A stretch of 64,000 nucleotides of DNA. It comes from Escherichia coli. GTDB taxonomy: Bacteria > Pseudomonadota > Gammaproteobacteria > Enterobacterales > Enterobacteriaceae. A program made the translations under genes and the position numbers. Shown here piece by piece: positions 3,521 to 61,074 of the stretch; position 1 is the first letter of the stretch; each line of letters starts with the position of its first letter. The notes under the pieces were generated by a model that worked only from the letters and a program-made list of their open reading frames with translations, was not told where the DNA came from and made no database searches. The stretch lies in assembly GCF_044647545.1 (NCBI RefSeq), contig NZ_CP172818.1. One strand, given 5' to 3'.

Positions 3521-3610
3521 GTAGGCCTGATAAGACGCTATGAGCGTCGCATCAGGCATCCTGCTCAAATGCCGGATGCGGCGTAAACGCCTTATCCTGC
3601 CTACAATGCG
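3521..3610. repeat. REP/BIME palindromic units in yiiM-cpxA spacer
   Basis: gcctgataagacgc...gcgtcgcatcaggc and gccggatgcggcgtaaacgccttatcc, typical REP sequences. Confidence 0.8.
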
Positions 3611-8583: not shown

Positions 8584-8682
8584 GCCTGATGCGCTTCGCT
8601 TATCAGGCCTACATGAATTCTGCAATTTATTGAATTTGCAAACTTTTGTAGGCCGGATAAGGCGTTCGCGCCGCATCCGGCA
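8584..8682. repeat. REP palindromic units in pfkA-sbp spacer
   Basis: gcctgatgcgcttcgcttatcaggcctac and gtaggccggataaggcgttcgcgccgcatccggca. Confidence 0.8.
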
Positions 8683-38657: not shown

Positions 38658-39761
38658 TTATTCCCATTCTTGCAGGAAACGCTGGCCATACTGGTCGGCT
38701 ACCAGCAGTGCGGCGTAAACCTGATCTGGCGTTGCACCGCCTGGCATGTTGTGAATGGTTTCACCTTCTGCACATGCCGCTTCTGCCACAATTCGCATTT
38801 TCGCCGGGACATCTTCTTTAATATCCAGTTGAGCGAGCGTTATTGGCAAACCTACCGCATGGCTAAGCGCAGCTACGGTTTCGATTTCCTCCACCGGCGC
38901 GTTTTCCAGAACCAGCTGCGTCAGCGTACCGAATGCCACTTTTTCACCATGATAATAGTGATGCGCGTCCGGGATAGCGGTCAGGCCGTTATGTACCGCG
39001 TGTGCCGCCGCCAGCCCGCCGCTTTCAAAACCAACACCGCTCAAATAGGTGTTCGCTTCAATCACGCGTTCCAGCGCCGGAGTCACTACATGCTGTTCGG
39101 CGGCAAGCATCGCTTTTTCGCCTTCTTCCAGCAGAGTGTTGTAGCACAGTTCTGCCAGTGCCAGCGCCGCCTGGGTGCACTTGCCGCCCGCCATGGTGGT
39201 CGCGCCGCTACGAGAGCAAGCACGCGCTTCAAACCAGGTTGCCAGCGCATCGCCGATACCCGCCGCTAACAGACGTGCAGGTGCGCCAGCGACGATTTTG
39301 GTGTCGACAATGACCATATTCGGGTTATTTGGCAACAGCAGATAGCGGTCAAACTCACCCTCATCGGTGTAGATAACAGACAATGCGCTGCATGGTGCAT
39401 CGGTAGAGGCGATAGTCGGTGCGATCGCTACCGGAACACCCATGAAATGTGCCAGTGCTTTGGCAGTATCGAGGGTTTTTCCGCCACCGATACCGAGAAT
39501 TGCGCCACACTGCGCAGTCTCCGCGATGCCACGCAGACGGTCGATCTCATTTTGCGAACATTCACCGCCAAACGGCGCAATTTCTACTACCAGTCCAGCA
39601 TCTTTAAAACTTTTCTCGACAGTGGATTGAGCAAAACCTAAAACAAATTTGTCACCCACCACTAACCAGCGTTCTGCCAGCGGCTTCAGGTATTCGCCCA
39701 GACGATTAATCACATCAGCGCCCTGGATGTATTTACCCGGTGATTGAATAATGCGGTCCAT
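38658..39761 (-). CDS. gldA: glycerol dehydrogenase
   Basis: ORF 38658..39800; start at ATG 39761 ([32 protein letters not shown]...) gives 367 aa. Confidence 0.96.
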
Positions 39762-39771
39762 AATTGCTCCT

Positions 39772-40434
39772 TTAGAGATGAGTAGTGCCAAATGCGGCAT
39801 TCCAGTCGTTTTCGAACTTCTCTATAGCTGACTCTACCGCAGGGGTGTTGAGCATTTGTTGCGCTACATCTAAGGGCAGGGTGATGGATTCACATCCTGC
39901 CAGTAAACAGTCCAGCGCCTGACGCGGCGTTTTAAAGCTGGCTGCCAGCACCATGCTTTCTGGCGCGTGCATTTCCAACAGCGCTTGCAGCTCCTGAACC
40001 GTACGAATGCCGTCCCCGCCCTGGGCGTCGACGCGGTTAACATACGGAGCAACATATTTTGCCCCTGCCAGCGCGGCTAATAACCCTTGTGCGGCGCTAT
40101 ATACAGCGGTGCCAAGTGTAGTAATACCCTCTTTTTTCAGCATTTTAATGGCGGCAAGACCTTCGGAAGTTACCGGGATTTTCACCACAATGCCCGGAAT
40201 GGCGTCGCGCAGGCGCTTCGCTTCTTCCACCATACCCTGCGCGTCACGACTCATGGTCTGAGCAAACAAAATACCCTCATCACCAATCGCTTTTTGCAAA
40301 CGCGGCAGCACTTCCCAGATGGACTCCTTGCTGGCCGCGATAATGCTCGGGTTAGTTGTCACCCCGGCAATCGGGAATATGCGTGCCAGACGTTCGACTT
40401 CTGCGACGTTAGCGGTGTCCAGATACAGTTCCAT
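39772..40434 (-). CDS. fsaB: fructose-6-phosphate aldolase 2
   Basis: 220-aa [45 protein letters not shown]... Confidence 0.95.
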
Positions 40435-40445
40435 GATGTTTCCTT

Positions 40446-42947
40446 TTACAGTTCCAGTTCATGTTGCAGCAGGCTGGCGATAGCGTCGGCAGAGGCGGCG
40501 TTAACCAGCGCGTTACGGAATTCTTCGTGCATGATGCGACGAGCGAGGCGCGAGAAAATGCGCATGTGCTGATCGCCCGCAGCGTGTTTGTTCAGGGTTA
40601 ACATAATGATGAATTGCGCTTCATCATCGCCCCAGCGCACCGGCGCTGCCAGACGCGCCACGCTGATGGTGGATTGCTCAATGTGTTCTGATTTGCTGTG
40701 GGGAATGGCAAAACTAAAGCCCAGACCGGTAGAGAAAACGGCCTCGCGCGCCCACAAGTCGGCTTCCAGTTTACGCGGATAGCGACAGCGGCCCGCCAGC
40801 AGCAGGTTATCGGTCATGCCTTTGAGCACTTCTTCTTTGCTGCGCCAGTCGCTTTCCAGTGTGATGCACTCGGCGGTGACCAGCGGGGCGTCCTGTTGGG
40901 TCATGCGGAATTGCGCCAGCAGGTGTTCCACTTCTAGCGAAGTACGGCAGGCCATTGCCTGGTTGAGCAACTGGCGGCACTCACGGCTATCAAGTTGCGC
41001 CATTCGCGCTTTCGCCGCCGGAATTGACGGTGCGCTCATGCTCAGCTCATCCAGCCCTAAACCGACCAGCAATGGCAGCACGGAACCTTTCGCTCCCAGT
41101 TCACCGCACAGACCAATCCATTTGCCCTGGCGATGCACCGCCTGCACGGCGTAATCGAGCGCCCGCAAGAATGCTGGATTCAGGCTGTTATAGTGACGAG
41201 TAACCTTAGCGTTATCGCGATCCACTGCTAGCAGATATTGCGTCAGGTCATTACTACCGATACTAAAGAAATCAATCTCTTCGCAGCATTGATCGATGAT
41301 GAACATCACCGACGGCACTTCCAGCATGATGCCGAGCTGGATCTTCTCATCAAACGGAATGTGTTCGTTACGCAGTTGCTGTTTGGCTTCCGCCAGTTTT
41401 TCTTTTACCCATAAGATCTCTTCCATTGAAGAGATCATCGGGATCATAATTTTCAGGCTGCCGTGAGCGGAGGCACGGAGAATCGACCGTAGTTGTGTGG
41501 TAAATAACGACGCGTACTCTTCATAAATACGCACGGCGCGATAACCGAGGAACGGGTTTGCCTCTGCGGGAATGTTCAGATAATCAACGGGTTTGTCACC
41601 GCCAATATCCATAGTGCGCACAATAATGCTGCGTCCGTTGGCGGACTCCAGCGCCTGACAAAAAATGTTGTACAGCTCGCTTTCGCCCGGTGCACTGGTG
41701 CGATCCATATAGAGCATTTCAGTGCGGAATAAACCAACGCCTTCCGCACCATTGCCGAATGCGGCCTGCGCTTCCACGGAGTGAGCGATGTTAGCAGCAA
41801 TTTCAATGCGGATACCGTCAGCAGTACGGGCTTGTTGGGTCAGCCAGACACGCTGTTGCTCACGCAGAGCGTCCTGTACGCGGGCTTCTTGCTGATAATA
41901 ACGGGCCACGGATTCCCCTGGCTCAACCACAATCGCCCCTGCGTTGCCGTCGATATAAATCGTTTGATGCTGCCACGGAGTGAGGGCATCAATATCCACA
42001 CCAACCAGCGTCGGAATGTTGAACGAACGGGCAAGGATCACCGTATGTGAGGTGGTGCCGCCGCTTTTGAGCAACAATCCTTTGAGGTGATTTTTATCCA
42101 GTTCGAGGAACTGGCTGGGGGTCAGTTCATCAGCCATACAAATGGCGGGCTGCGTCAGTTTGCCCGGTGCCGGGAAGCGTTGCTCACCGTAGATTTGCTG
42201 GAGTAACTGGAAGCAGACGTCGCGTACGTCCAGGGCACGTTCTTGCAGGTAGCTGCTGCTGGAACGGGCGAACTCTTCGCAGAAGTGGTGTGCACTGGCA
42301 ACAATCGCTTCGGCACAGCTTAATCCGGCGCTGACACCTGCCAGTAAATGTTCGCGCAGGGAAGTATCGCCAGCCAGGGATCGGTGCGCTTCCAGAATCG
42401 CGCTGGTAGCACCGTCGCTATCCAGCAGACGAAACTCTATGTTTTTCAGTACCAGCGTCAGACCGTTTTCCAGTGCGGATTGTTCGGCGTCAACGCCTTT
42501 GGCTGCGGGAAGATTACCCAGCGCATTGAGATCTAAAGAAGAGATCGGCGTCAGAATGCCGCCTGCGCTACCGCTGCACACGGTGCGGGCACGGATAATT
42601 TGCGGATTCAGATTGGTCAGTGAAACCGGCAGTGGTTCCAGTTCGTCAGATTTTACTTCCGCCAGCGGTGCGTCGCAGTGGGGGAATTCATCGCGCAGCC
42701 ATTGGCTTAAACGCTGGTGCGCTTCCTGTTCGTCGGCCCCGGAAATCAGTAACTGGCAGTTATCGCCCACCAGCGTATCGGTGCCAATCAGCGCAAGGGC
42801 GCTTTTGGCGTTGCCCTTGCGGTCAGTGCGCAGGTTATGCCACTCAATTTGTGATGAAAAAGTATTACACAGCGTTTCAACGTGGCTTGCCGGACGCGCA
42901 TGGACGCCGTTAGGTAGCTCACAAATAAATTCCACAATCAGGGCCAT
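40446..42947 (-). CDS. ptsA: multiphosphoryl transfer protein PtsA/FrwA (EI-like, HPr-like and EIIA-like domains)
   Basis: 833-aa [33 protein letters not shown]... carrying HPr-like N-terminus and PEP-utilizing enzyme region. Confidence 0.93.
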
Positions 42948-43255
42948 TGCCTTTCTCCCGGTACGGTTTTCTGTTTACAGGATAAGAGCGCACGGCAACG
43001 GCCTACCATGTGACAAATCTGCCAAAAGCTGGACAAATGTAATGTAACCGTCAATTTGCGACGCGTCTCACAAGACGCCGTTTTGCGGTGTACTTCCGGA
43101 TTATCGCAAGTTATGAGGCGGATCGCATTTTTGTACTGATATTACAAAAGTCCAGTAAATGGCCTTTTTATCCACTGTTTGCTCCGCCTGCGATTGCCTA
43201 TTGTTTCTTCCATCAAAAATATGGACATGGGCTTTCGCAAGCCCGGGAGCAGCTT

Positions 43256-44335
43256 ATGAATGAGTTGGTGCAGATCCTGAAAAATACTCGTCAGCATTTA
43301 ATGACGGGCGTTTCACACATGATTCCCTTCGTGGTATCGGGCGGTATTTTGCTGGCGGTTTCCGTCATGTTGTATGGCAAAGGCGCAGTGCCGGATGCCG
43401 TCGCCGATCCGAATCTGAAAAAACTGTTTGATATCGGCGTTGCAGGTTTGACGCTGATGGTGCCTTTCCTCGCCGCTTACATCGGTTATTCCATTGCAGA
43501 GCGTTCTGCGCTGGCTCCGTGCGCTATCGGTGCCTGGGTTGGTAACAGCTTTGGTGCGGGCTTCTTTGGTGCACTGATCGCCGGGATTATCGGCGGCATC
43601 GTGGTGCATTACCTGAAGAAAATTCCGGTGCATAAAGTTCTGCGCTCGGTGATGCCCATCTTCATCATTCCGATCGTCGGCACACTGATTACCGCAGGCA
43701 TCATGATGTGGGGTCTGGGCGAGCCTGTAGGGGCGTTGACCAACAGCCTGACTCAGTGGCTTCAGGGGATGCAGCAGGGCAGCATTGTTATGCTGGCGGT
43801 GATCATGGGTCTGATGCTGGCGTTCGATATGGGTGGTCCGGTTAACAAAGTGGCCTATGCCTTCATGCTGATTTGCGTTGCTCAGGGTGTATATACCGTG
43901 GTGGCCATTGCTGCCGTGGGTATTTGTATCCCGCCGCTGGGGATGGGGTTGGCGACGCTGATTGGTCGTAAAAATTTCTCCGCAGAAGAGCGCGAAACCG
44001 GCAAAGCGGCGCTGGTGATGGGGTGCGTTGGGGTTACTGAAGGGGCGATTCCTTTCGCCGCTGCCGATCCGTTACGTGTCATTCCTTCCATCATGGTCGG
44101 TTCTGTTTGTGGTGCGGTAACTGCGGCACTGGTCGGTGCACAGTGCTATGCAGGCTGGGGTGGTCTGATTGTGCTGCCGGTGGTTGAAGGCAAGCTGGGT
44201 TATATCGCAGCAGTGGCTGTCGGAGCAGTGGTGACGGCTGTTTGTGTGAACGTGCTGAAAAGTCTGGCGCGTAAAAATGGGTCTTCGACTGATGAAAAAG
44301 AAGACGACCTGGATTTGGATTTTGAAATTAATTAA
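43256..44335 (+). CDS. frwC: fructose-like PTS permease EIIC component
   Basis: ORF 43088..44335; start at ATG 43256 (MNELVQILKNTRQHLMTGVSHMIPFVVSGGILLAV...) gives 359 aa. Confidence 0.93.
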   Translation: MNELVQILKNTRQHLMTGVSHMIPFVVSGGILLAVSVMLYGKGAVPDAVADPNLKKLFDIGVAGLTLMVPFLAAYIGYSIAERSALAPCAIGAWVGNSFGAGFFGALIAGIIGGIVVHYLKKIPVHKVLRSVMPIFIIPIVGTLITAGIMMWGLGEPVGALTNSLTQWLQGMQQGSIVMLAVIMGLMLAFDMGGPVNKVAYAFMLICVAQGVYTVVAIAAVGICIPPLGMGLATLIGRKNFSAEERETGKAALVMGCVGVTEGAIPFAAADPLRVIPSIMVGSVCGAVTAALVGAQCYAGWGGLIVLPVVEGKLGYIAAVAVGAVVTAVCVNVLKSLARKNGSSTDEKEDDLDLDFEIN

Positions 44336-44349
44336 TTGAGGAACGAGCC

Positions 44350-44670
44350 ATGACGAAAATTATTGCAGTAACCGCGTGTCCATCTGGTGTTGCCCATACC
44401 TATATGGCGGCAGAGGCGCTGGAAAGTGCCGCGAAAGCGAAAGGCTGGGAAGTGAAAGTAGAAACCCAGGGCTCGATTGGTCTGGAAAATGAACTGACTG
44501 CGGAAGACGTGGCGAGCGCCGATATGGTGATTCTGACCAAAGATATCGGCATCAAGTTTGAAGAGCGTTTTGCTGGCAAGACCATCGTGCGCGTCAACAT
44601 CAGCGACGCGGTAAAACGCGCTGATGCCATTATGAGCAAAATTGAAGCTCACCTGGCACAAACCGCTTAA
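44350..44670 (+). CDS. frwB: fructose-like PTS EIIB component
   Basis: 106-aa ORF MTKIIAVTACPSGVAHTYMAAEALESAAKAKGWEVKVETQGS... Confidence 0.94.
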   Translation: MTKIIAVTACPSGVAHTYMAAEALESAAKAKGWEVKVETQGSIGLENELTAEDVASADMVILTKDIGIKFEERFAGKTIVRVNISDAVKRADAIMSKIEAHLAQTA

Positions 44671-44678
44671 GTTCTTAT

Positions 44679-44696
44679 CCCGCCCGTAAGGGCGGG
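44679..44696 (+). terminator. hairpin after frwB (possible attenuator/terminator, weak T-run)
   Basis: cccgccc-gtaa-gggcggg followed by ttcgctttccc. Confidence 0.35.
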
Positions 44697-44720
44697 TTCG
44701 CTTTCCCACAGGAGTTCCTC

Positions 44721-47018
44721 ATGACGAATCGTATCTCTCGCCTCAAAACTGCACTGTTTGCCAATACCCGTGAAATCTCGCTGGAGCGGGCGCTGCTTTA
44801 TACCGCCAGCCATCGGCAAACCGAAGGCGAACCGGTGATATTGCGCCGGGCGAAAGCAACAGCGTATATCCTTGAACATGTTGAAATTTCGATTCGTGAT
44901 GAAGAACTGATTGCCGGTAACCGCACCGTAAAACCACGCGCCGGGATTATGTCGCCGGAAATGGACCCTTACTGGCTGCTGAAAGAGCTGGATCAATTCC
45001 CGACGCGTCCGCAGGACCGCTTTGCTATCAGCGAAGAAGATAAACGTATCTACCGCGAAGAGTTGTTCCCGTACTGGGAAAAACGTTCGATGAAAGATTT
45101 CATTAACGGGCAGATGACGGATGAAGTAAAAGCCGCGACCAGCACGCAGATTTTCAGCATCAACCAGACGGATAAAGGCCAGGGGCACATTATTATTGAT
45201 TACCCGCGCCTGCTGAATCACGGGCTGGGTGAGCTGGTAGCGCAAATGCAGCAACATTGTCAGCAACAGCCGGAGAATCACTTTTATCAGGCCGCGTTGT
45301 TACTGCTGGAAGCCTCGCAGAAACACATTTTGCGTTACGCCGAACTGGCGGAAACGATGGCGGCAAACTGCACAGATGCCCAGCGTCGCGAAGAGCTGCT
45401 GACTATTGCGGAGATCTCCCGCCATAACGCGCAACATAAGCCGCAGACGTTCTGGCAGGCGTGCCAGTTATTCTGGTACATGAACATCATTCTGCAATAC
45501 GAATCCAACGCCAGTTCGCTGTCTTTAGGGCGCTTCGACCAGTATATGTTGCCGTTCTATCAGGCATCTTTAACCCTGGGCGAAGATCCGGCGTTCCTGA
45601 AAGAACTGCTCGAATCTTTATGGGTGAAATGCAACGACATCGTGCTGTTGCGCTCCACCAGCAGCGCGCGTTATTTCGCCGGTTTCCCGACCGGCTATAC
45701 CGCACTGCTCGGCGGTTTAACCGAGAATGGACGTAGCGCGGTGAACGTGCTTTCGTTCCTCTGCCTCGATGCTTATCAAAGCGTGCAATTACCGCAACCG
45801 AACCTCGGCGTGCGCACTAACGCCTTGATCGACACGCCGTTCCTGATGAAAACCGCAGAAACCATTCGCCTCGGCACCGGTATTCCGCAAATCTTTAACG
45901 ATGAAGTGGTAGTGCCAGCGTTCCTCAACCGTGGCGTTTCGCTGGAAGATGCGCGCGACTATTCCGTAGTGGGCTGTGTGGAATTATCTATTCCCGGCAG
46001 AACCTACGGTCTGCATGACATTGCGATGTTTAACTTGCTGAAAGTGATGGAAATCTGCCTGCATGAAAATGAAGGCAATGCTGCGCTGACTTATGAAGGT
46101 TTACTGGAGCAGATCCGCGCCAAGATCAGCCACTACATCACCCTGATGGTTGAGGGCAGCAATATTTGTGATATCGGCCATCGCGACTGGGCACCTGTAC
46201 CGCTACTCTCGTCTTTTATCAGCGATTGTCTGGAAAAAGGCCGCGATATTACCGATGGCGGTGCGCGTTATAACTTCTCCGGCGTACAGGGGATCGGTAT
46301 CGCCAACCTGAGCGATTCTCTCCATGCGTTGAAAGGTATGGTTTTTGAGCAACAGCGTTTAAGTTTTGACGAATTGCTGTCGGTATTAAAAGCCAACTTC
46401 GCAACGCCAGAAGGCGAAAAAGTCCGTGCTCGCTTAATTAACCGCTTCGAGAAATACGGTAACGATATCGACGAGGTGGATAACATCAGCGCCGAACTGT
46501 TGCGCCACTACTGCAAAGAAGTGGAAAAATACCAGAACCCGCGCGGCGGTTACTTCACGCCGGGATCGTATACCGTTTCTGCTCACGTCCCGTTGGGATC
46601 GGTGGTTGGCGCGACGCCAGACGGTCGTTTTGCCGGAGAACAGCTGGCAGACGGCGGCTTGTCACCCATGCTGGGCCAGGACGCACAAGGGCCAACGGCG
46701 GTACTGAAGTCAGTCAGTAAGCTCGATAATACGCTGCTGTCTAACGGTACGTTGCTGAACGTGAAATTCACTCCGGCGACCCTGGAAGGTGAAGCGGGAT
46801 TACGCAAACTGGCCGACTTCTTACGGGCGTTTACCCAGCTTAAGTTGCAGCATATTCAGTTTAACGTGGTGAACGCCGACACGTTGCGGGAAGCGCAACA
46901 GCGCCCACAAGATTATGCCGGGCTGGTGGTGCGCGTTGCCGGATACAGCGCCTTCTTTGTCGAATTGTCGAAGGAGATCCAGGATGACATCATCCGCCGG
47001 ACAGCGCATCAGCTGTAA
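44721..47018 (+). CDS. pflD: glycyl-radical enzyme (pyruvate formate-lyase paralogue) PflD
   Basis: 765-aa ORF MTNRISRLKTALFANTREISLERALLYTASHRQTEGEPVI...; C-terminal glycyl-radical motif region RVAGYSAFF. Confidence 0.95.
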   Translation: MTNRISRLKTALFANTREISLERALLYTASHRQTEGEPVILRRAKATAYILEHVEISIRDEELIAGNRTVKPRAGIMSPEMDPYWLLKELDQFPTRPQDRFAISEEDKRIYREELFPYWEKRSMKDFINGQMTDEVKAATSTQIFSINQTDKGQGHIIIDYPRLLNHGLGELVAQMQQHCQQQPENHFYQAALLLLEASQKHILRYAELAETMAANCTDAQRREELLTIAEISRHNAQHKPQTFWQACQLFWYMNIILQYESNASSLSLGRFDQYMLPFYQASLTLGEDPAFLKELLESLWVKCNDIVLLRSTSSARYFAGFPTGYTALLGGLTENGRSAVNVLSFLCLDAYQSVQLPQPNLGVRTNALIDTPFLMKTAETIRLGTGIPQIFNDEVVVPAFLNRGVSLEDARDYSVVGCVELSIPGRTYGLHDIAMFNLLKVMEICLHENEGNAALTYEGLLEQIRAKISHYITLMVEGSNICDIGHRDWAPVPLLSSFISDCLEKGRDITDGGARYNFSGVQGIGIANLSDSLHALKGMVFEQQRLSFDELLSVLKANFATPEGEKVRARLINRFEKYGNDIDEVDNISAELLRHYCKEVEKYQNPRGGYFTPGSYTVSAHVPLGSVVGATPDGRFAGEQLADGGLSPMLGQDAQGPTAVLKSVSKLDNTLLSNGTLLNVKFTPATLEGEAGLRKLADFLRAFTQLKLQHIQFNVVNADTLREAQQRPQDYAGLVVRVAGYSAFFVELSKEIQDDIIRRTAHQL

Positions 47019-47862
47019 CGTTGTGGAAACGCGCCGCGATGATGTGGCGCGCATTTTCAACATTCAGCGTTATTCACTGAATGACGGCGAGGGCATTCGT
47101 ACGGTGGTCTTTTTTAAAGGCTGTCCGCATCTTTGCCCGTGGTGTGCTAATCCGGAGTCGATCTCCGGCAAAATCCAGACTGTACGCAGAGAGGCGAAAT
47201 GTCTGCACTGTGCGAAATGTTTGCGTGATGCGGATGAATGCCCCTCCGGTGCGTTTGAACGGATTGGTCGCGATATCAGCCTTGACGCTCTGGAACGGGA
47301 AGTGATGAAAGATGACATTTTCTTTCGCACGTCCGGCGGCGGCGTCACGCTTTCTGGCGGCGAAGTGTTAATGCAGGCGGAGTTTGCTACCCGTTTTTTA
47401 CAGCGGCTGCGGTTGTGGGGCGTGTCATGCGCCATTGAAACCGCCGGAGACGCGCCAGCCAGCAAGCTGTTACCGCTGGCGAAATTGTGCGATGAAGTGT
47501 TGTTCGATTTAAAAATTATGGACGCGACTCAGGCGCGGGATGTGGTGAAGATGAACCTGCCACGCGTGCTGGAGAATCTGCGTTTGCTGGTGAGTGAGGG
47601 CGTCAACGTGATCCCGCGTTTACCGCTGATCCCTGGTTTCACGCTCAGCCGGGAGAATATGCAGCAGGCGCTGGACGTGCTGATCCCGCTGAATATCAGG
47701 CAGATCCATCTGTTACCGTTTCATCAGTACGGCGAACCGAAATACCGCCTGCTGGGGAAAACATGGTCGATGAAAGAGGTGTCTGCGCCGTCGTCAGCCG
47801 ATGTGACAACGATGCGCGAAATGGCAGAACGGGCCGGATTTCAGGTTACCGTGGGAGGTTAA
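46984..47862 (+). CDS. pflC: glycyl-radical enzyme activating protein (radical SAM) PflC
   Basis: ORF 46915..47862; start at ATG 46984 (MTSSAGQRISCNVVETRRDDVARIFNIQRYSLNDGEGIRTVVFFKGCPHLCPWC...) gives 292 aa; overlaps pflD end. Confidence 0.93.
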   Translation: MTSSAGQRISCNVVETRRDDVARIFNIQRYSLNDGEGIRTVVFFKGCPHLCPWCANPESISGKIQTVRREAKCLHCAKCLRDADECPSGAFERIGRDISLDALEREVMKDDIFFRTSGGGVTLSGGEVLMQAEFATRFLQRLRLWGVSCAIETAGDAPASKLLPLAKLCDEVLFDLKIMDATQARDVVKMNLPRVLENLRLLVSEGVNVIPRLPLIPGFTLSRENMQQALDVLIPLNIRQIHLLPFHQYGEPKYRLLGKTWSMKEVSAPSSADVTTMREMAERAGFQVTVGG

Positions 47863-47863
47863 A

Positions 47864-48205
47864 ATGGCATACCTGGTGGCAGTAACCGCCTGCGTAAGCG
47901 GCGTGGCGCATACTTATATGGCGGCGGAACGGCTGGAAAAGTTGTGCCAGTTAGAGAAGTGGGGCGTCAGCATTGAAACTCAGGGCGCGCTGGGAACGGA
48001 GAATCGTTTAGCGGACGAGGATATCCGTCGGGCGGATGTTGCTCTGTTGATTACGGATATCGAGCTTGCCGGTGCCGAGCGATTTGAACATTGCCGCTAC
48101 GTGCAATGCAGCATCTACGCTTTCCTGCGTGAGCCGCAGCGGGTGATGAGCGCGGTACGCAAAGTGCTTTCTGCGCCGCAGCAAATCCATCTTATTCTGG
48201 AGTAG
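47864..48205 (+). CDS. frwD: fructose-like PTS EIIB component 2
   Basis: 113-aa ORF MAYLVAVTACVSGVAHTYMAAERLEKLCQLEKWGVSIETQGALG... Confidence 0.94.
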   Translation: MAYLVAVTACVSGVAHTYMAAERLEKLCQLEKWGVSIETQGALGTENRLADEDIRRADVALLITDIELAGAERFEHCRYVQCSIYAFLREPQRVMSAVRKVLSAPQQIHLILE

Positions 48206-49043
48206 TCGGTTTTTCTGTCAGTTGGCTGTGGTACTGCCGACGATATTCCGACGGTGAGCGTTCGGTATTTTTACGAAACAGACGGCAGAAGTAGTTGCTG
48301 TCGACAAAGCCGCAGGCGTGCGCCACTTCTTTTACCTTCAGGTCATAGCCTTTCAATAACGTCTTAGCGTGCTCCAGTCGCGTGTGATTCAGGTATTCGT
48401 TAAAACCAATGGCCCCCGTTTTTTGAAACAGGTGCGAGAGGTAATTTGGCGAAATATAGAATGCCTGTGCGACAGATTCGCGGGTAAGCGCGGAGGCATA
48501 GCGTTCGTCGATATAATCGCGAATAGCTTCGAATAGAGCCTGGCTACGTGAGGCGGTCTGGATTTGGCTGCCGAGCAAATCGCGGCAGTGGCTAAGCAGG
48601 CTGGCGACGATAAGCCTTGCCGTTTGCTGCTCCTGCGACTGCATTTGCATTTCATTGAGCGTTTGTAGCAGAAAAGAACCTATGCGTGGGCCGCGTCGGG
48701 CGACGTGTTGCTTCGCCAGATTTTGATATTGTTTGCCATCCCATTGCACGACGCTGAAGCCGAGTTGCTGTTTGCCAAACAGCACGCTAAAGGTCGTGGC
48801 GGGGGCTTGCCATTGTGGAAAATTCCAGCCACCAGCGGGAACGTACAGCACATCGCCGGGAACTAACGTTGCTCCAGCGCCGGTATCAACAAACTCACCT
48901 TCCAGCACAATTTCCAGTCGTGGAAAATCGACCTGATACGCAAGATCGGGCACCGGGCCGTTGCTGCTGGCAAAGTAAATCTGGCGCAGGGACAGCGGGC
49001 CGTTGATCAGGCGGGAGAGCAGATAGCTGACGTCGTGATACAT
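48192..49043 (-). CDS. yijO: AraC-family transcriptional regulator YijO
   Basis: 283-aa ORF MYHDVSYLLSRLINGPLSLRQIYFASSNGP... with C-terminal AraC-type HTH; 14-bp convergent overlap with frwD. Confidence 0.9.
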   Translation of the reverse strand: MYHDVSYLLSRLINGPLSLRQIYFASSNGPVPDLAYQVDFPRLEIVLEGEFVDTGAGATLVPGDVLYVPAGGWNFPQWQAPATTFSVLFGKQQLGFSVVQWDGKQYQNLAKQHVARRGPRIGSFLLQTLNEMQMQSQEQQTARLIVASLLSHCRDLLGSQIQTASRSQALFEAIRDYIDERYASALTRESVAQAFYISPNYLSHLFQKTGAIGFNEYLNHTRLEHAKTLLKGYDLKVKEVAHACGFVDSNYFCRLFRKNTERSPSEYRRQYHSQLTEKPTTPE

Positions 49044-60904: not shown

Positions 60905-60965
60905 GGGGATTGCAGATTAACAAAATGGCTTCCATCGCCGGGATTCAAAACTTTGGCAAAAAAAA

Positions 60966-61074
60966 GCGGATCCTGGAGATCCGCAAAAGTTCACGTTGGC
61001 TTTAGTTATTCGAGTTGAGAAACTCTCGAAACGGGCAGTGACTTCAAGGGTTAAAAGAGGTGCCGCTCCGTTTC
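60966..61074 (-). ncRNA. oxyS: OxyS oxidative-stress small RNA
   Basis: Reverse complement reads GAAACGGAGCGGCACCTCTTTTAACCCTTGAAGTCACTGCCCGTTTCGAGAGTTTCTCAACTCGAATAACTAAAGCCAACGTGAACTTTTGCGGATCTCCAGGATCCGC with terminator hairpin and U-run, matching OxyS as recalled. Confidence 0.9.

Follow-up and report, generated by a model that had tools for sequence, protein, structure and literature searches.

Gene organization and control regions

The window, a 64,000-nucleotide stretch of Escherichia coli DNA, bears a nine-gene locus that encodes a fructose-type phosphotransferase system (PTS), a glycyl radical enzyme with its activase, an aldolase, a dehydrogenase and an AraC-family protein. Genes were placed by the ORF listing and the RefSeq annotation, with the RefSeq names and coordinates taken from a genome 100% identical to the window. 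The features are as follows:

38658-39761, minus strand: gldA
39772-40434, minus strand: fsaB
40446-42947, minus strand: ptsA (833 aa)
42948..43255, no strand: divergent control region between ptsA and frwC (308 bp)
about 43006-43048, in the ptsA-frwC region: conserved block 1 (four-genus alignment)
about 43060-43078, in the ptsA-frwC region: conserved block 2, a GTGnGA-N5-CTCACA dyad (four-genus alignment)
about 43119-43206, in the ptsA-frwC region: conserved block 3 (four-genus alignment)
43256-44335, plus strand: frwC
44350-44670, plus strand: frwB
44679..44696, plus strand: hairpin CCCGCCC-GTAA-GGGCGGG (top terminator-like match, and fold)
44721-47018, plus strand: pflD (765 aa)
46984-47862, plus strand: pflC
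47864-48205, plus strand: frwD
48192-49043, minus strand: yijO

All nine ORFs are intact, start with ATG and have Shine-Dalgarno sequences, and the region was found in 5425 of the 5426 complete E. coli genomes at 95-100% identity. In E. coli K-12 this locus is b3945-b3953 (PflD/PflC with FrwCBD, PtsA, FsaB and GldA), with identical order and neighbours and only allelic differences. The locus is the ordinary, near-universal and already known frw/pflDC/fsaB/gldA region of E. coli; the initial annotation had likewise judged it a native system and not a new one. The gene identities, the gene order and the neighbours fsaB, gldA and yijO named there agreed with the ORF listing, RefSeq, Pfam and NCBIfam. 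The picture of a single string from ptsA to frwD holds for the genes and their placement but not for the string itself, since ptsA lies on the opposite strand, 308 bp from frwC. The locus comprises two divergent transcription units and a convergent regulator gene. On the minus strand, ptsA, fsaB and gldA are co-oriented with gaps of 11 bp (fsaB-ptsA) and 10 bp (gldA-fsaB), and PMC6643234 describes ptsA-fsaB-gldA as one operon activated anaerobically. On the plus strand, pflD and pflC overlap by 35 bp. A plasmid-borne locus was considered and rejected: of the "plasmid" records that bear it, one is an E. coli replicon of 4.9 Mb and the other a linear Salmonella fragment of 194 kb with chromosomal neighbours, which marks them as mislabelled chromosomes.

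Three blocks of the ptsA-frwC region are phylogenetically conserved. A simple promoter scan of this region gave no consensus sigma-70 promoter, which fits activator dependence. No inverted repeat was detected there at the thresholds of the repeat finder, so the dyad of block 2 is drawn from the cross-genus alignment only. An Rfam scan gave no RNA families inside 37.6-49.4 kb. The hairpin has a perfect, all-GC stem of 7 bp and lies within the 50-bp frwB-pflD spacer; Enterobacter keeps the stem, and Salmonella and Edwardsiella carry a REP-like insert at this place. It is probably an intra-operon element of RNA processing, RNA stability or partial termination. At the other end, yijO converges on frwD so that the 3′ ends overlap by 14 bp, an arrangement that PMC12288877 lists as a convergent excludon. 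YijO belongs to the AraC family (Pfam HTH_18 and HTH_AraC), and a convergent AraC gene is kept in all five genera compared (E. coli, Salmonella, Enterobacter, Edwardsiella and Vibrio). PMC9308461 assigns no function to yijO; we presume that its product is the regulator of the pathway.

The PflD/PflC pair and the Frw PTS

PflD carries the Pfam domains PF02901 (PFL-like, 703 bits) and PF01228 (Gly_radical, 108 bits) and has the hallmarks of a glycyl radical enzyme, namely a catalytic Cys419 and the RVAGY motif at 738-742 with the radical site at Gly741. The active-site motif at 418-421 is GCVE, with the thiyl Cys419 and Glu421; the CC motif was not found in PflD, its site reading G-C-V-E. On TIGR01255 (pyr_form_ly_1), the model of true pyruvate formate-lyase (PFL), PflD scored 119 bits, far below the cutoff of 994; the scores were 1349 bits on TIGR01774, for the PFL2/glycerol dehydratase subfamily (cutoff 678), and 1724 bits on NF007437, the PflD equivalog model (cutoff 1109). 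The best characterised PDB relative was 1R8W, a B12-independent glycerol dehydratase (E=1e-194), as compared with E=3e-33 for the true PFL 1H16. Judged by these motifs and scores, PflD is a dehydratase/eliminase-type glycyl radical enzyme and is kin to PFL at the superfamily level only. The earlier description of PflD as a PFL paralogue is thus borne out for the superfamily but not for the subfamily. Since PflD lacks the Cys-Cys pair and falls so far short of the PFL cutoff, its product name "formate C-acetyltransferase" is a misnomer.

PflB and PflA share with PflD and PflC the PFL-like and Gly_radical domains and a radical-SAM activase, but PflB has a Cys-Cys pair and cleaves a C-C bond with CoA. 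The Clostridium butyricum enzyme 1R8W, the closest characterised relative in fold and sequence outside the PflD/YbiW group, resembles PflD in its single catalytic Cys plus Glu and its C-terminal glycyl loop; propanediol dehydratase, CutC and HypD are related enzymes of the eliminase type. The substrate of 1R8W is a small vicinal diol from which water is eliminated, whereas that of PflD is a phosphorylated cyclic sugar ether whose ring C-O bond is cleaved, and the genomic contexts differ as well. A structure deposited as "Probable dehydratase PflD" (PDB 8YJO; 1728 bits) is 99% identical to the PflD of the window. Five substitutions separate the window protein from 8YJO/K-12 (S141N, A282T, L286Q, P290A and L384F, window to K-12), all outside the GCVE and RVAGY motifs. 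Structures of YbiW have also been deposited (PDB 8ID7 and 8YJN).

PflC is a radical SAM protein (Pfam Radical_SAM and Fer4_12; 629 bits on NF007483, cutoff 326) with the CX3CX2C motif at Cys47/51/54 and an auxiliary Cys cluster that starts at residue 73. These features mark it as the radical-SAM activase of PflD.

PtsA comprises, from the N- to the C-terminus, the Pfam domains HPr (7-84), EI (123-653) and EIIA_2 (690-829), the last of the Fru/Ntr type, and bears the phospho-site motifs of HPr (His16 in GVHARP), EI (His301 in GGTTSH) and EIIA (IPHSK). By its domain content PtsA is a private phosphorelay from PEP; RefSeq calls its gene "ptsP". FrwC is a membrane permease, an EIIC of the fructose family (720 bits on NF007787, cutoff 426; 300 bits on TIGR01427, cutoff 158). 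FrwB is a PTS EIIB (Pfam PTS_IIB, NF007783) with the phospho-accepting Cys10 in AVTACPSGVAHT, and FrwD is a second PTS_IIB paralogue, 44% identical to FrwB, with Cys10 kept; both match TIGR00829. The EIIC type, the EIIB cysteine, the EIIA_2 domain and the phospho-His motifs of EI and HPr together place the system in the fructose family. Each domain stated in the initial annotation (the EI/HPr/EIIA fusion, the fructose-type EIIC, the two EIIBs, radical SAM and AraC) was recovered with Pfam and NCBIfam. FruBKA and FryABC likewise have a fructose-type EIIC, an EIIB with an N-terminal Cys, EIIA_2 and fused HPr/EI-like modules. In the Frw system, by contrast, one EIIC gene and two EIIB genes stand separately among those of the radical enzyme pair, and its E. 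coli locus contains no 1-phosphofructokinase gene.

The module in other genera and its paralogue in E. coli

The module of PTS, radical enzyme, aldolase and AraC genes is kept in Salmonella and Enterobacter, where the same set includes the dehydrogenase. Edwardsiella has the module in a different chromosomal context and without an adjacent gldA, which indicates that the cassette does not depend on GldA being present. In Vibrio, in a sequence from a plasmid collection, PflD is 76% identical, the operon itself includes the gene for an Fsa-like aldolase (40% identical), and a glycerol dehydrogenase is encoded close by. The Vibrio locus additionally encodes Gfo/Idh/MocA and RmlD-like oxidoreductases, a SIS-domain protein, pfkB and manA. 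Its Gfo/Idh/MocA protein was rejected as a candidate 1,5-anhydrofructose reductase, being YvaA/YhhX-like and matching 2GLX at the family level only (E=1.5e-12). The best 120 matches of a word-indexed search were all from Enterobacteriaceae at no less than 89% identity, too close to provide independent evidence of synteny, so that the Vibrio locus is the useful mid-distance case. A second EIIB gene after the activase gene was also seen in Vibrio, Edwardsiella, Salmonella and Enterobacter.

In K-12 itself, YbiW, YbiY and FsaA, encoded side by side, are paralogues of PflD (37%), PflC (35%) and FsaB (70%). YbiW shares the GC[IV]E motif with PflD and, according to the literature, forms the same product from the C2 epimer of the PflD substrate. 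Unlike the locus in the window, the ybiW locus is devoid of a private PTS, an EI/HPr/EIIA fusion, gldA and an AraC regulator, and it carries the sugar phosphatase gene ybiV.

A probable route for 1,5-anhydromannitol

The initial annotation held the substrates of PflD and of the PTS to be undefined and called the cluster cryptic. A literature check showed that the former view is out of date, owing to the work of Ma et al. 2024 (J Am Chem Soc 146:26187, doi 10.1021/jacs.4c07718) as summarised in section 5.1 of PMC12441222. According to this summary, PTS systems, which it leaves unnamed, phosphorylate both 1,5-anhydroglucitol and 1,5-anhydromannitol; YbiW converts 1,5-anhydroglucitol-6-phosphate to 1-deoxyfructose-6-phosphate, and PflD opens the ring of 1,5-anhydromannitol-6-phosphate to give the same compound. 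The reaction is described there as glycyl-radical dependent and strictly anaerobic, and the pathway as able to support E. coli growth. With PflD activity and growth published, the label "cryptic" is no longer apt. We consider it highly probable that, within the anaerobic "radical-mediated glycolysis" that breaks down 1,5-anhydrohexitols, the locus represents the branch for 1,5-anhydromannitol. Against this reading stands the description of 1,5-anhydromannitol as non-physiological in mammals, since a natural source of the substrate in the gut is then not obvious. The full module (PTS, radical enzyme with activase, Fsa-type aldolase and hydroxyacetone/propanediol dehydrogenase) lies within 38658-48205.

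Under this scheme, phosphate would pass from PEP through the EI, HPr and EIIA domains of PtsA to Cys10 of FrwB and/or FrwD, and FrwC would translocate the sugar, which would arrive as 1,5-anhydromannitol-6-phosphate. The involvement of a PTS is itself published, and the assignment of this step to FrwCBD/PtsA in particular comes from linkage: the conserved interleaving with pflDC leads us to presume a dedicated 1,5-anhydromannitol transporter. PflC would then install the glycyl radical on Gly741 of PflD, whereupon a thiyl radical at Cys419, with Glu421 as the base, would drive ring C-O cleavage to 1-deoxyfructose-6-phosphate; the substrate and product are those published, and the three mechanistic residues are predicted from the sequence. 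FsaB is a fructose-6-phosphate aldolase 2 (350 bits on TIGR00875, cutoff 246), 70% identical to FsaA, whose gene adjoins ybiW-ybiY. GldA, encoded by the last gene of the ptsA-fsaB-gldA unit and annotated as NAD-dependent, matches Pfam Fe-ADH and NF047954, the bifunctional L-1,2-propanediol/glycerol dehydrogenase (752 bits, cutoff 700). We infer that FsaB splits 1-deoxyfructose-6-phosphate into glyceraldehyde-3-phosphate, which would enter glycolysis, and hydroxyacetone, which GldA would reduce to 1,2-propanediol, thereby regenerating NAD+. Ma et al. reportedly describe these two steps, and the roles proposed here draw on that work, the operon structure and the conserved linkage. The sugar or its phosphate is probably the signal to which YijO responds, and YijO may activate the divergent promoters under anoxia.

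On another reading, Frw might bring in a sugar other than that of PflD (for example fructose, another ketose or 1,5-anhydrofructose), with 1,5-anhydromannitol-6-phosphate made intracellularly or delivered by a different PTS, such as that for mannose or glucose, and Frw/PtsA serving mainly supply or regulation. Every Frw component belongs to the fructose PTS family, PtsA is tied to anaerobic fructose catabolism in an older report that PMC6643234 cites, the PMC12441222 summary gives the PTS no name, and the additional Vibrio enzymes (the oxidoreductases, SIS-domain protein, pfkB and manA) might together turn related sugars, or their phosphates, into one another. However, the EIIC and both EIIB genes are interleaved with pflDC in one unit that is kept in Enterobacteriaceae, Edwardsiella and Vibrio, and the Vibrio Gfo/Idh/MocA protein resembles 2GLX merely as a family member. 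Since the YbiW branch operates without a private PTS, the simplest role for the one in this locus is to supply the substrate of PflD, and import of a different sugar appears unlikely.

The RefSeq product names, the NF007437 and NF007483 descriptions and the Pfam superfamily shared with PflB would suit a PflD/PflC pair that really acts as a keto-acid formate-lyase (formate C-acetyltransferase, EC 2.3.1.54), a spare PFL that sits in a PTS operon by accident. The single Cys and Glu in place of the PFL Cys-Cys pair, the TIGR01255 score and the much weaker match to PflB structures than to glycerol dehydratase argue against it, as do the name "dehydratase" chosen by the 8YJO depositors and the different substrate given in the PMC12441222 summary, so that we regard it as exceedingly improbable. 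Decay of the locus to a cryptic remnant that no longer has a function in E. coli would agree with the historical label and with the lack of a consensus sigma-70 promoter in the control region. Nine intact ORFs with ribosome-binding sites, the near-universal presence at high identity, the sharply conserved non-coding blocks across four genera and the growth and enzyme phenotypes in PMC12441222 speak to the contrary; the conservation together with the published activity effectively refutes decay.

With 1,5-anhydromannitol as the favoured substrate, the result serves mainly to correct the record: the orphan status of the locus has ended, and it encodes part of the oxygen-sensitive fermentation of 1,5-anhydro-sugars (diet- and host-derived analogues of glucose and mannose) that was recently described for gut Enterobacteria. 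The PMC12441222 text mentions 1,5-anhydroglucitol as a clinical glycaemic marker and as a toxic precursor in G6PC3/GSD-Ib neutropenia. The public names (PflD as "formate C-acetyltransferase", PflC as its activase and PtsA as "ptsP") would mislead metabolic reconstructions.

The role of the second EIIB allows a further suggestion. As frwD always follows the activase gene and its 3′ end overlaps yijO, FrwD might act as a phospho-sensor of PTS flux that signals to YijO or to radical-enzyme activation, and not as a redundant transport part; we hold this to be quite improbable. If true, expression would follow the supply of sugar by way of the conserved operator blocks at 43006-43206 and of the transcript overlap between frwD and yijO.

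A minor observation, with no bearing on the transporter link, concerns three proteins (P0122, P0124 and P0126) from a search of a 50%-identity representative library for distant PflD orthologues. They scored below the PflD equivalog cutoff, and PTS or Fsa neighbours were not found on their short contigs; their specificity is probably different from that of PflD.

Layout and conservation of the frw-pflDC locus

Of the 5426 complete E. coli genomes, 5425 matched the interval 40446-48205 (7.76 kb) at 95-100% identity, and 5393 of these 5425 covered at least 80% of its length; in several clinical strains the match is 100%. The window is Escherichia coli chromosome, and a decaying cryptic locus is rejected on the conservation data. 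The gene layout was derived from the ORF listing together with the RefSeq annotation of a genome with identical sequence.

Genes of the locus (ORF listing and RefSeq annotation)
38658-39761, minus strand, gldA
39772-40434, minus strand, fsaB
40446-42947, minus strand, ptsA
43256-44335, plus strand, frwC
44350-44670, plus strand, frwB
44721-47018, plus strand, pflD
46984-47862, plus strand, pflC
47864-48205, plus strand, frwD
48192-49043, minus strand, yijO

Each of the nine ORFs is intact, with an ATG start codon and a Shine-Dalgarno sequence. The locus has yijF and katG as neighbours at one end, eptC and ppc at the other. The limits 40446-48205 set by the initial annotation coincide exactly with gene boundaries, and all the domains it named were recovered with Pfam and NCBIfam. 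Its gene identities hold; its description of the cluster is refined in two respects: ptsA lies on the strand opposite to frwC, the two genes diverging across 308 bp, and the domain order of the PtsA fusion is HPr-EI-EIIA. The ptsA, fsaB and gldA genes are closely packed, with gaps of 11 and 10 bp.

The phosphorylation sites of the PTS proteins are preserved: PtsA keeps the HPr histidine (GVHARP), the EI histidine (GGTTSH) and an EIIA histidine, and FrwB and FrwD, 44% identical, both keep the phospho-accepting Cys10. RefSeq labels ptsA as "ptsP", a symbol that belongs to another E. coli gene.

Four records filed as plasmids in PLSDB (NZ_CP141089.1, NZ_CP134663.1, NZ_OL790696.1 and NZ_CP051374.1) carry the locus. 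The E. coli ones are 4.8-4.9 Mb long, and the Salmonella one is linear, 194 kb, with metF-katG...ppc-argE neighbours. All are evidently chromosomal, whether whole or in fragments, and the apparent plasmid copies are therefore artefacts.

PflD chemistry and the proposed pathway

The active site of PflD reads G-C419-V-E421, the single Cys plus Glu being the dehydratase/eliminase signature in place of the Cys-Cys pair of pyruvate formate-lyase (PFL), and the glycyl loop is RVAG741Y. Among solved structures, the best agreement was with K-12 PflD itself (8YJO, "Probable dehydratase PflD"; 1728 bits, five substitutions), alongside the B12-independent glycerol dehydratase 1R8W (E=1e-194) and YbiW (8ID7, 8YJN; E=5e-143), while true PFL (1H16) gave only E=3e-33. 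With the curated PFL model TIGR01255 the score was 119 bits, where the cutoff is 994; PflD was above threshold with the models for the PFL2/glycerol-dehydratase subfamily and for the PflD equivalog. PflD is a member of the glycyl radical enzyme superfamily without being a pyruvate formate-lyase. A true formate-lyase role is rejected on motif, score and literature. PflC contains the radical-SAM CX3CX2C motif and an auxiliary Cys cluster.

The five differences from the window to K-12 8YJO are S141N, A282T, L286Q, P290A and L384F, none of them inside the GCVE or glycyl-loop motifs. The RefSeq/NCBIfam product names across 40446-47862 in identical genomes are misleading, PflD appearing as "formate C-acetyltransferase" and PflC as "[formate-C-acetyltransferase]-activating enzyme".

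The initial annotation considered the substrate of PflD undefined, a view to be overturned by a published demonstration of a defined one. That part is outdated: as the work of Ma et al. 2024 (J Am Chem Soc 146:26187) is summarized in section 5.1 of PMC12441222, the substrate is 1,5-anhydromannitol-6-phosphate (1,5-AM6P). According to the same summary, anaerobic degradation pathways exist for 1,5-anhydroglucitol and 1,5-anhydromannitol, in each of which a PTS first converts the sugar to its 6-phosphate; 1-deoxyfructose-6-phosphate is then formed by YbiW from 1,5-anhydroglucitol-6-phosphate and by PflD from 1,5-AM6P through cleavage, the reaction requiring a glycyl radical, and E. coli and other gut bacteria are able to grow on the sugar via the pathway (PMC12441222). 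The PDB entries 8YJO, 8ID7 and 8YJN are consistent with this account, and Ma et al. 2024 is cited in two further papers.

GldA matches the NCBIfam model for a bifunctional L-1,2-propanediol/glycerol dehydrogenase. Reportedly, in the abstract of Ma et al., FsaA/FsaB split 1-deoxyfructose-6-phosphate into glyceraldehyde-3-phosphate and hydroxyacetone, and GldA is said to convert hydroxyacetone to 1,2-propanediol. These roles are consistent with the operon structure. The ptsA-fsaB-gldA genes are described as a single, anaerobically activated operon in PMC6643234.

Taken together, the data are best explained by a scheme that we regard as quite probable as a whole. Phosphate would pass from PEP through PtsA EI, HPr and EIIA to Cys10 of FrwB/FrwD, and FrwC would import the sugar, arriving as 1,5-anhydromannitol-6-phosphate. 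PflD, activated by PflC, would open the ring through radical cleavage of a C-O bond, yielding 1-deoxyfructose-6-phosphate, which FsaB would split into glyceraldehyde-3-phosphate and hydroxyacetone; GldA would reduce the latter to 1,2-propanediol, with YijO as the presumed regulator. In this scheme the substrate of FrwCBD/PtsA and the role of YijO are inferred, and the alternative that Frw imports another sugar seems improbable.

The module in other loci and genera

In the paralogous K-12 locus, ybiW and ybiY adjoin fsaA (identities: YbiW/PflD 37%, YbiY/PflC 35%, FsaA/FsaB 70%), so the grouping of a radical enzyme with its activase and an Fsa aldolase exists in duplicate. In Salmonella and Enterobacter the entire katG...gldA-fsa-ptsA / frwCB-pflDC-frwD / yijO...ppc order is retained. 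Edwardsiella tarda ATCC 23685 (L003:5033-14389) has an fsa-ptsA / frwCB-pflDC-frwD / AraC block with PflD 92% identical, flanked by uvrC/pgsA and by an McrBC fragment plus ato genes; gldA is absent here, as are all of the E. coli flanking genes. Being at a different site, the block behaves as a cassette and looks like a horizontally moved one.

The module is also intact on the 519-kb replicon of Vibrio sp. THAF190c (L010:295-18346; PflD 76% identical), where a PtsA-type fusion diverges from the EIIC gene, followed by EIIB, radical enzyme, activase and a second EIIB, with a convergent AraC gene present. Between activase and second EIIB lie an RmlD-like NAD-binding protein and, inside the operon, an Fsa-like aldolase that shares 40% identity with FsaB. 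Nearby are genes for a Gfo/Idh/MocA oxidoreductase, HbpS-like and SIS proteins, pfkB, LacI, a glycerol dehydrogenase and manA. With these additions, the Vibrio variant may handle related sugars by a longer pathway. Its Gfo/Idh/MocA protein was considered as a 1,5-anhydrofructose reductase and set aside, the similarity not being specific. Conservation across genera supports a functional coupling of PTS, radical enzyme, aldolase and regulator.

A metagenome contig (ERZ16299706 NODE_2954; L007:6125-14895) bears in tandem two distinct glycyl radical enzymes, of 796 aa and 761 aa, each with its own activase; the adjoining genes encode a sugar ABC transporter, a regulator of the AraC type and a 623-aa protein that carries no annotation.

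Control regions, YijO and other elements of the window

In the divergent ptsA/frwC region (42948-43255), a four-genus alignment of E. coli, Salmonella, Enterobacter and Edwardsiella revealed three nearly invariant blocks, separated by freely variable sequence.

Features of the intergenic regions
~43006-43048, conserved block 1, ptsA/frwC control region
~43060-43078, conserved block 2, GTGnGA-N5-CTCACA dyad, ptsA/frwC control region
~43119-43206, conserved block 3, ptsA/frwC control region
44679-44696, plus strand, perfect 7-bp all-GC hairpin with GTAA loop, 50-bp frwB-pflD spacer

The blocks are candidate operator or promoter elements; a simple scan of the 308 bp found no consensus sigma-70 promoter. 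The frwB-pflD hairpin is followed by a weak T-tract. Its stem is kept in Enterobacter, changes being confined to the loop, and Salmonella and Edwardsiella have a longer REP-like insert in its place. The hairpin may determine how much PTS transcript is made relative to radical-enzyme transcript.

The convergent genes frwD and yijO share 14 bp at their 3′ ends (48192-48205), and the pair is named among convergent excludons in PMC12288877. The convergent AraC gene is kept in all five genera examined. YijO, which a 2022 survey (PMC9308461) still listed among transcription factors with no assigned function, is presumed to be the pathway regulator.

Elsewhere in the window, Rfam matches above the gathering score were those expected for this region of the E. 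coli chromosome, unrelated to the locus.

Rfam matches
3524-3601, minus strand, naRNA4
8605-8646, minus strand, ES036
22298-22355, minus strand, ClpQY promoter element
26967-27019, plus strand, L31 ribosomal-protein leader
60965-61074, minus strand, OxyS sRNA
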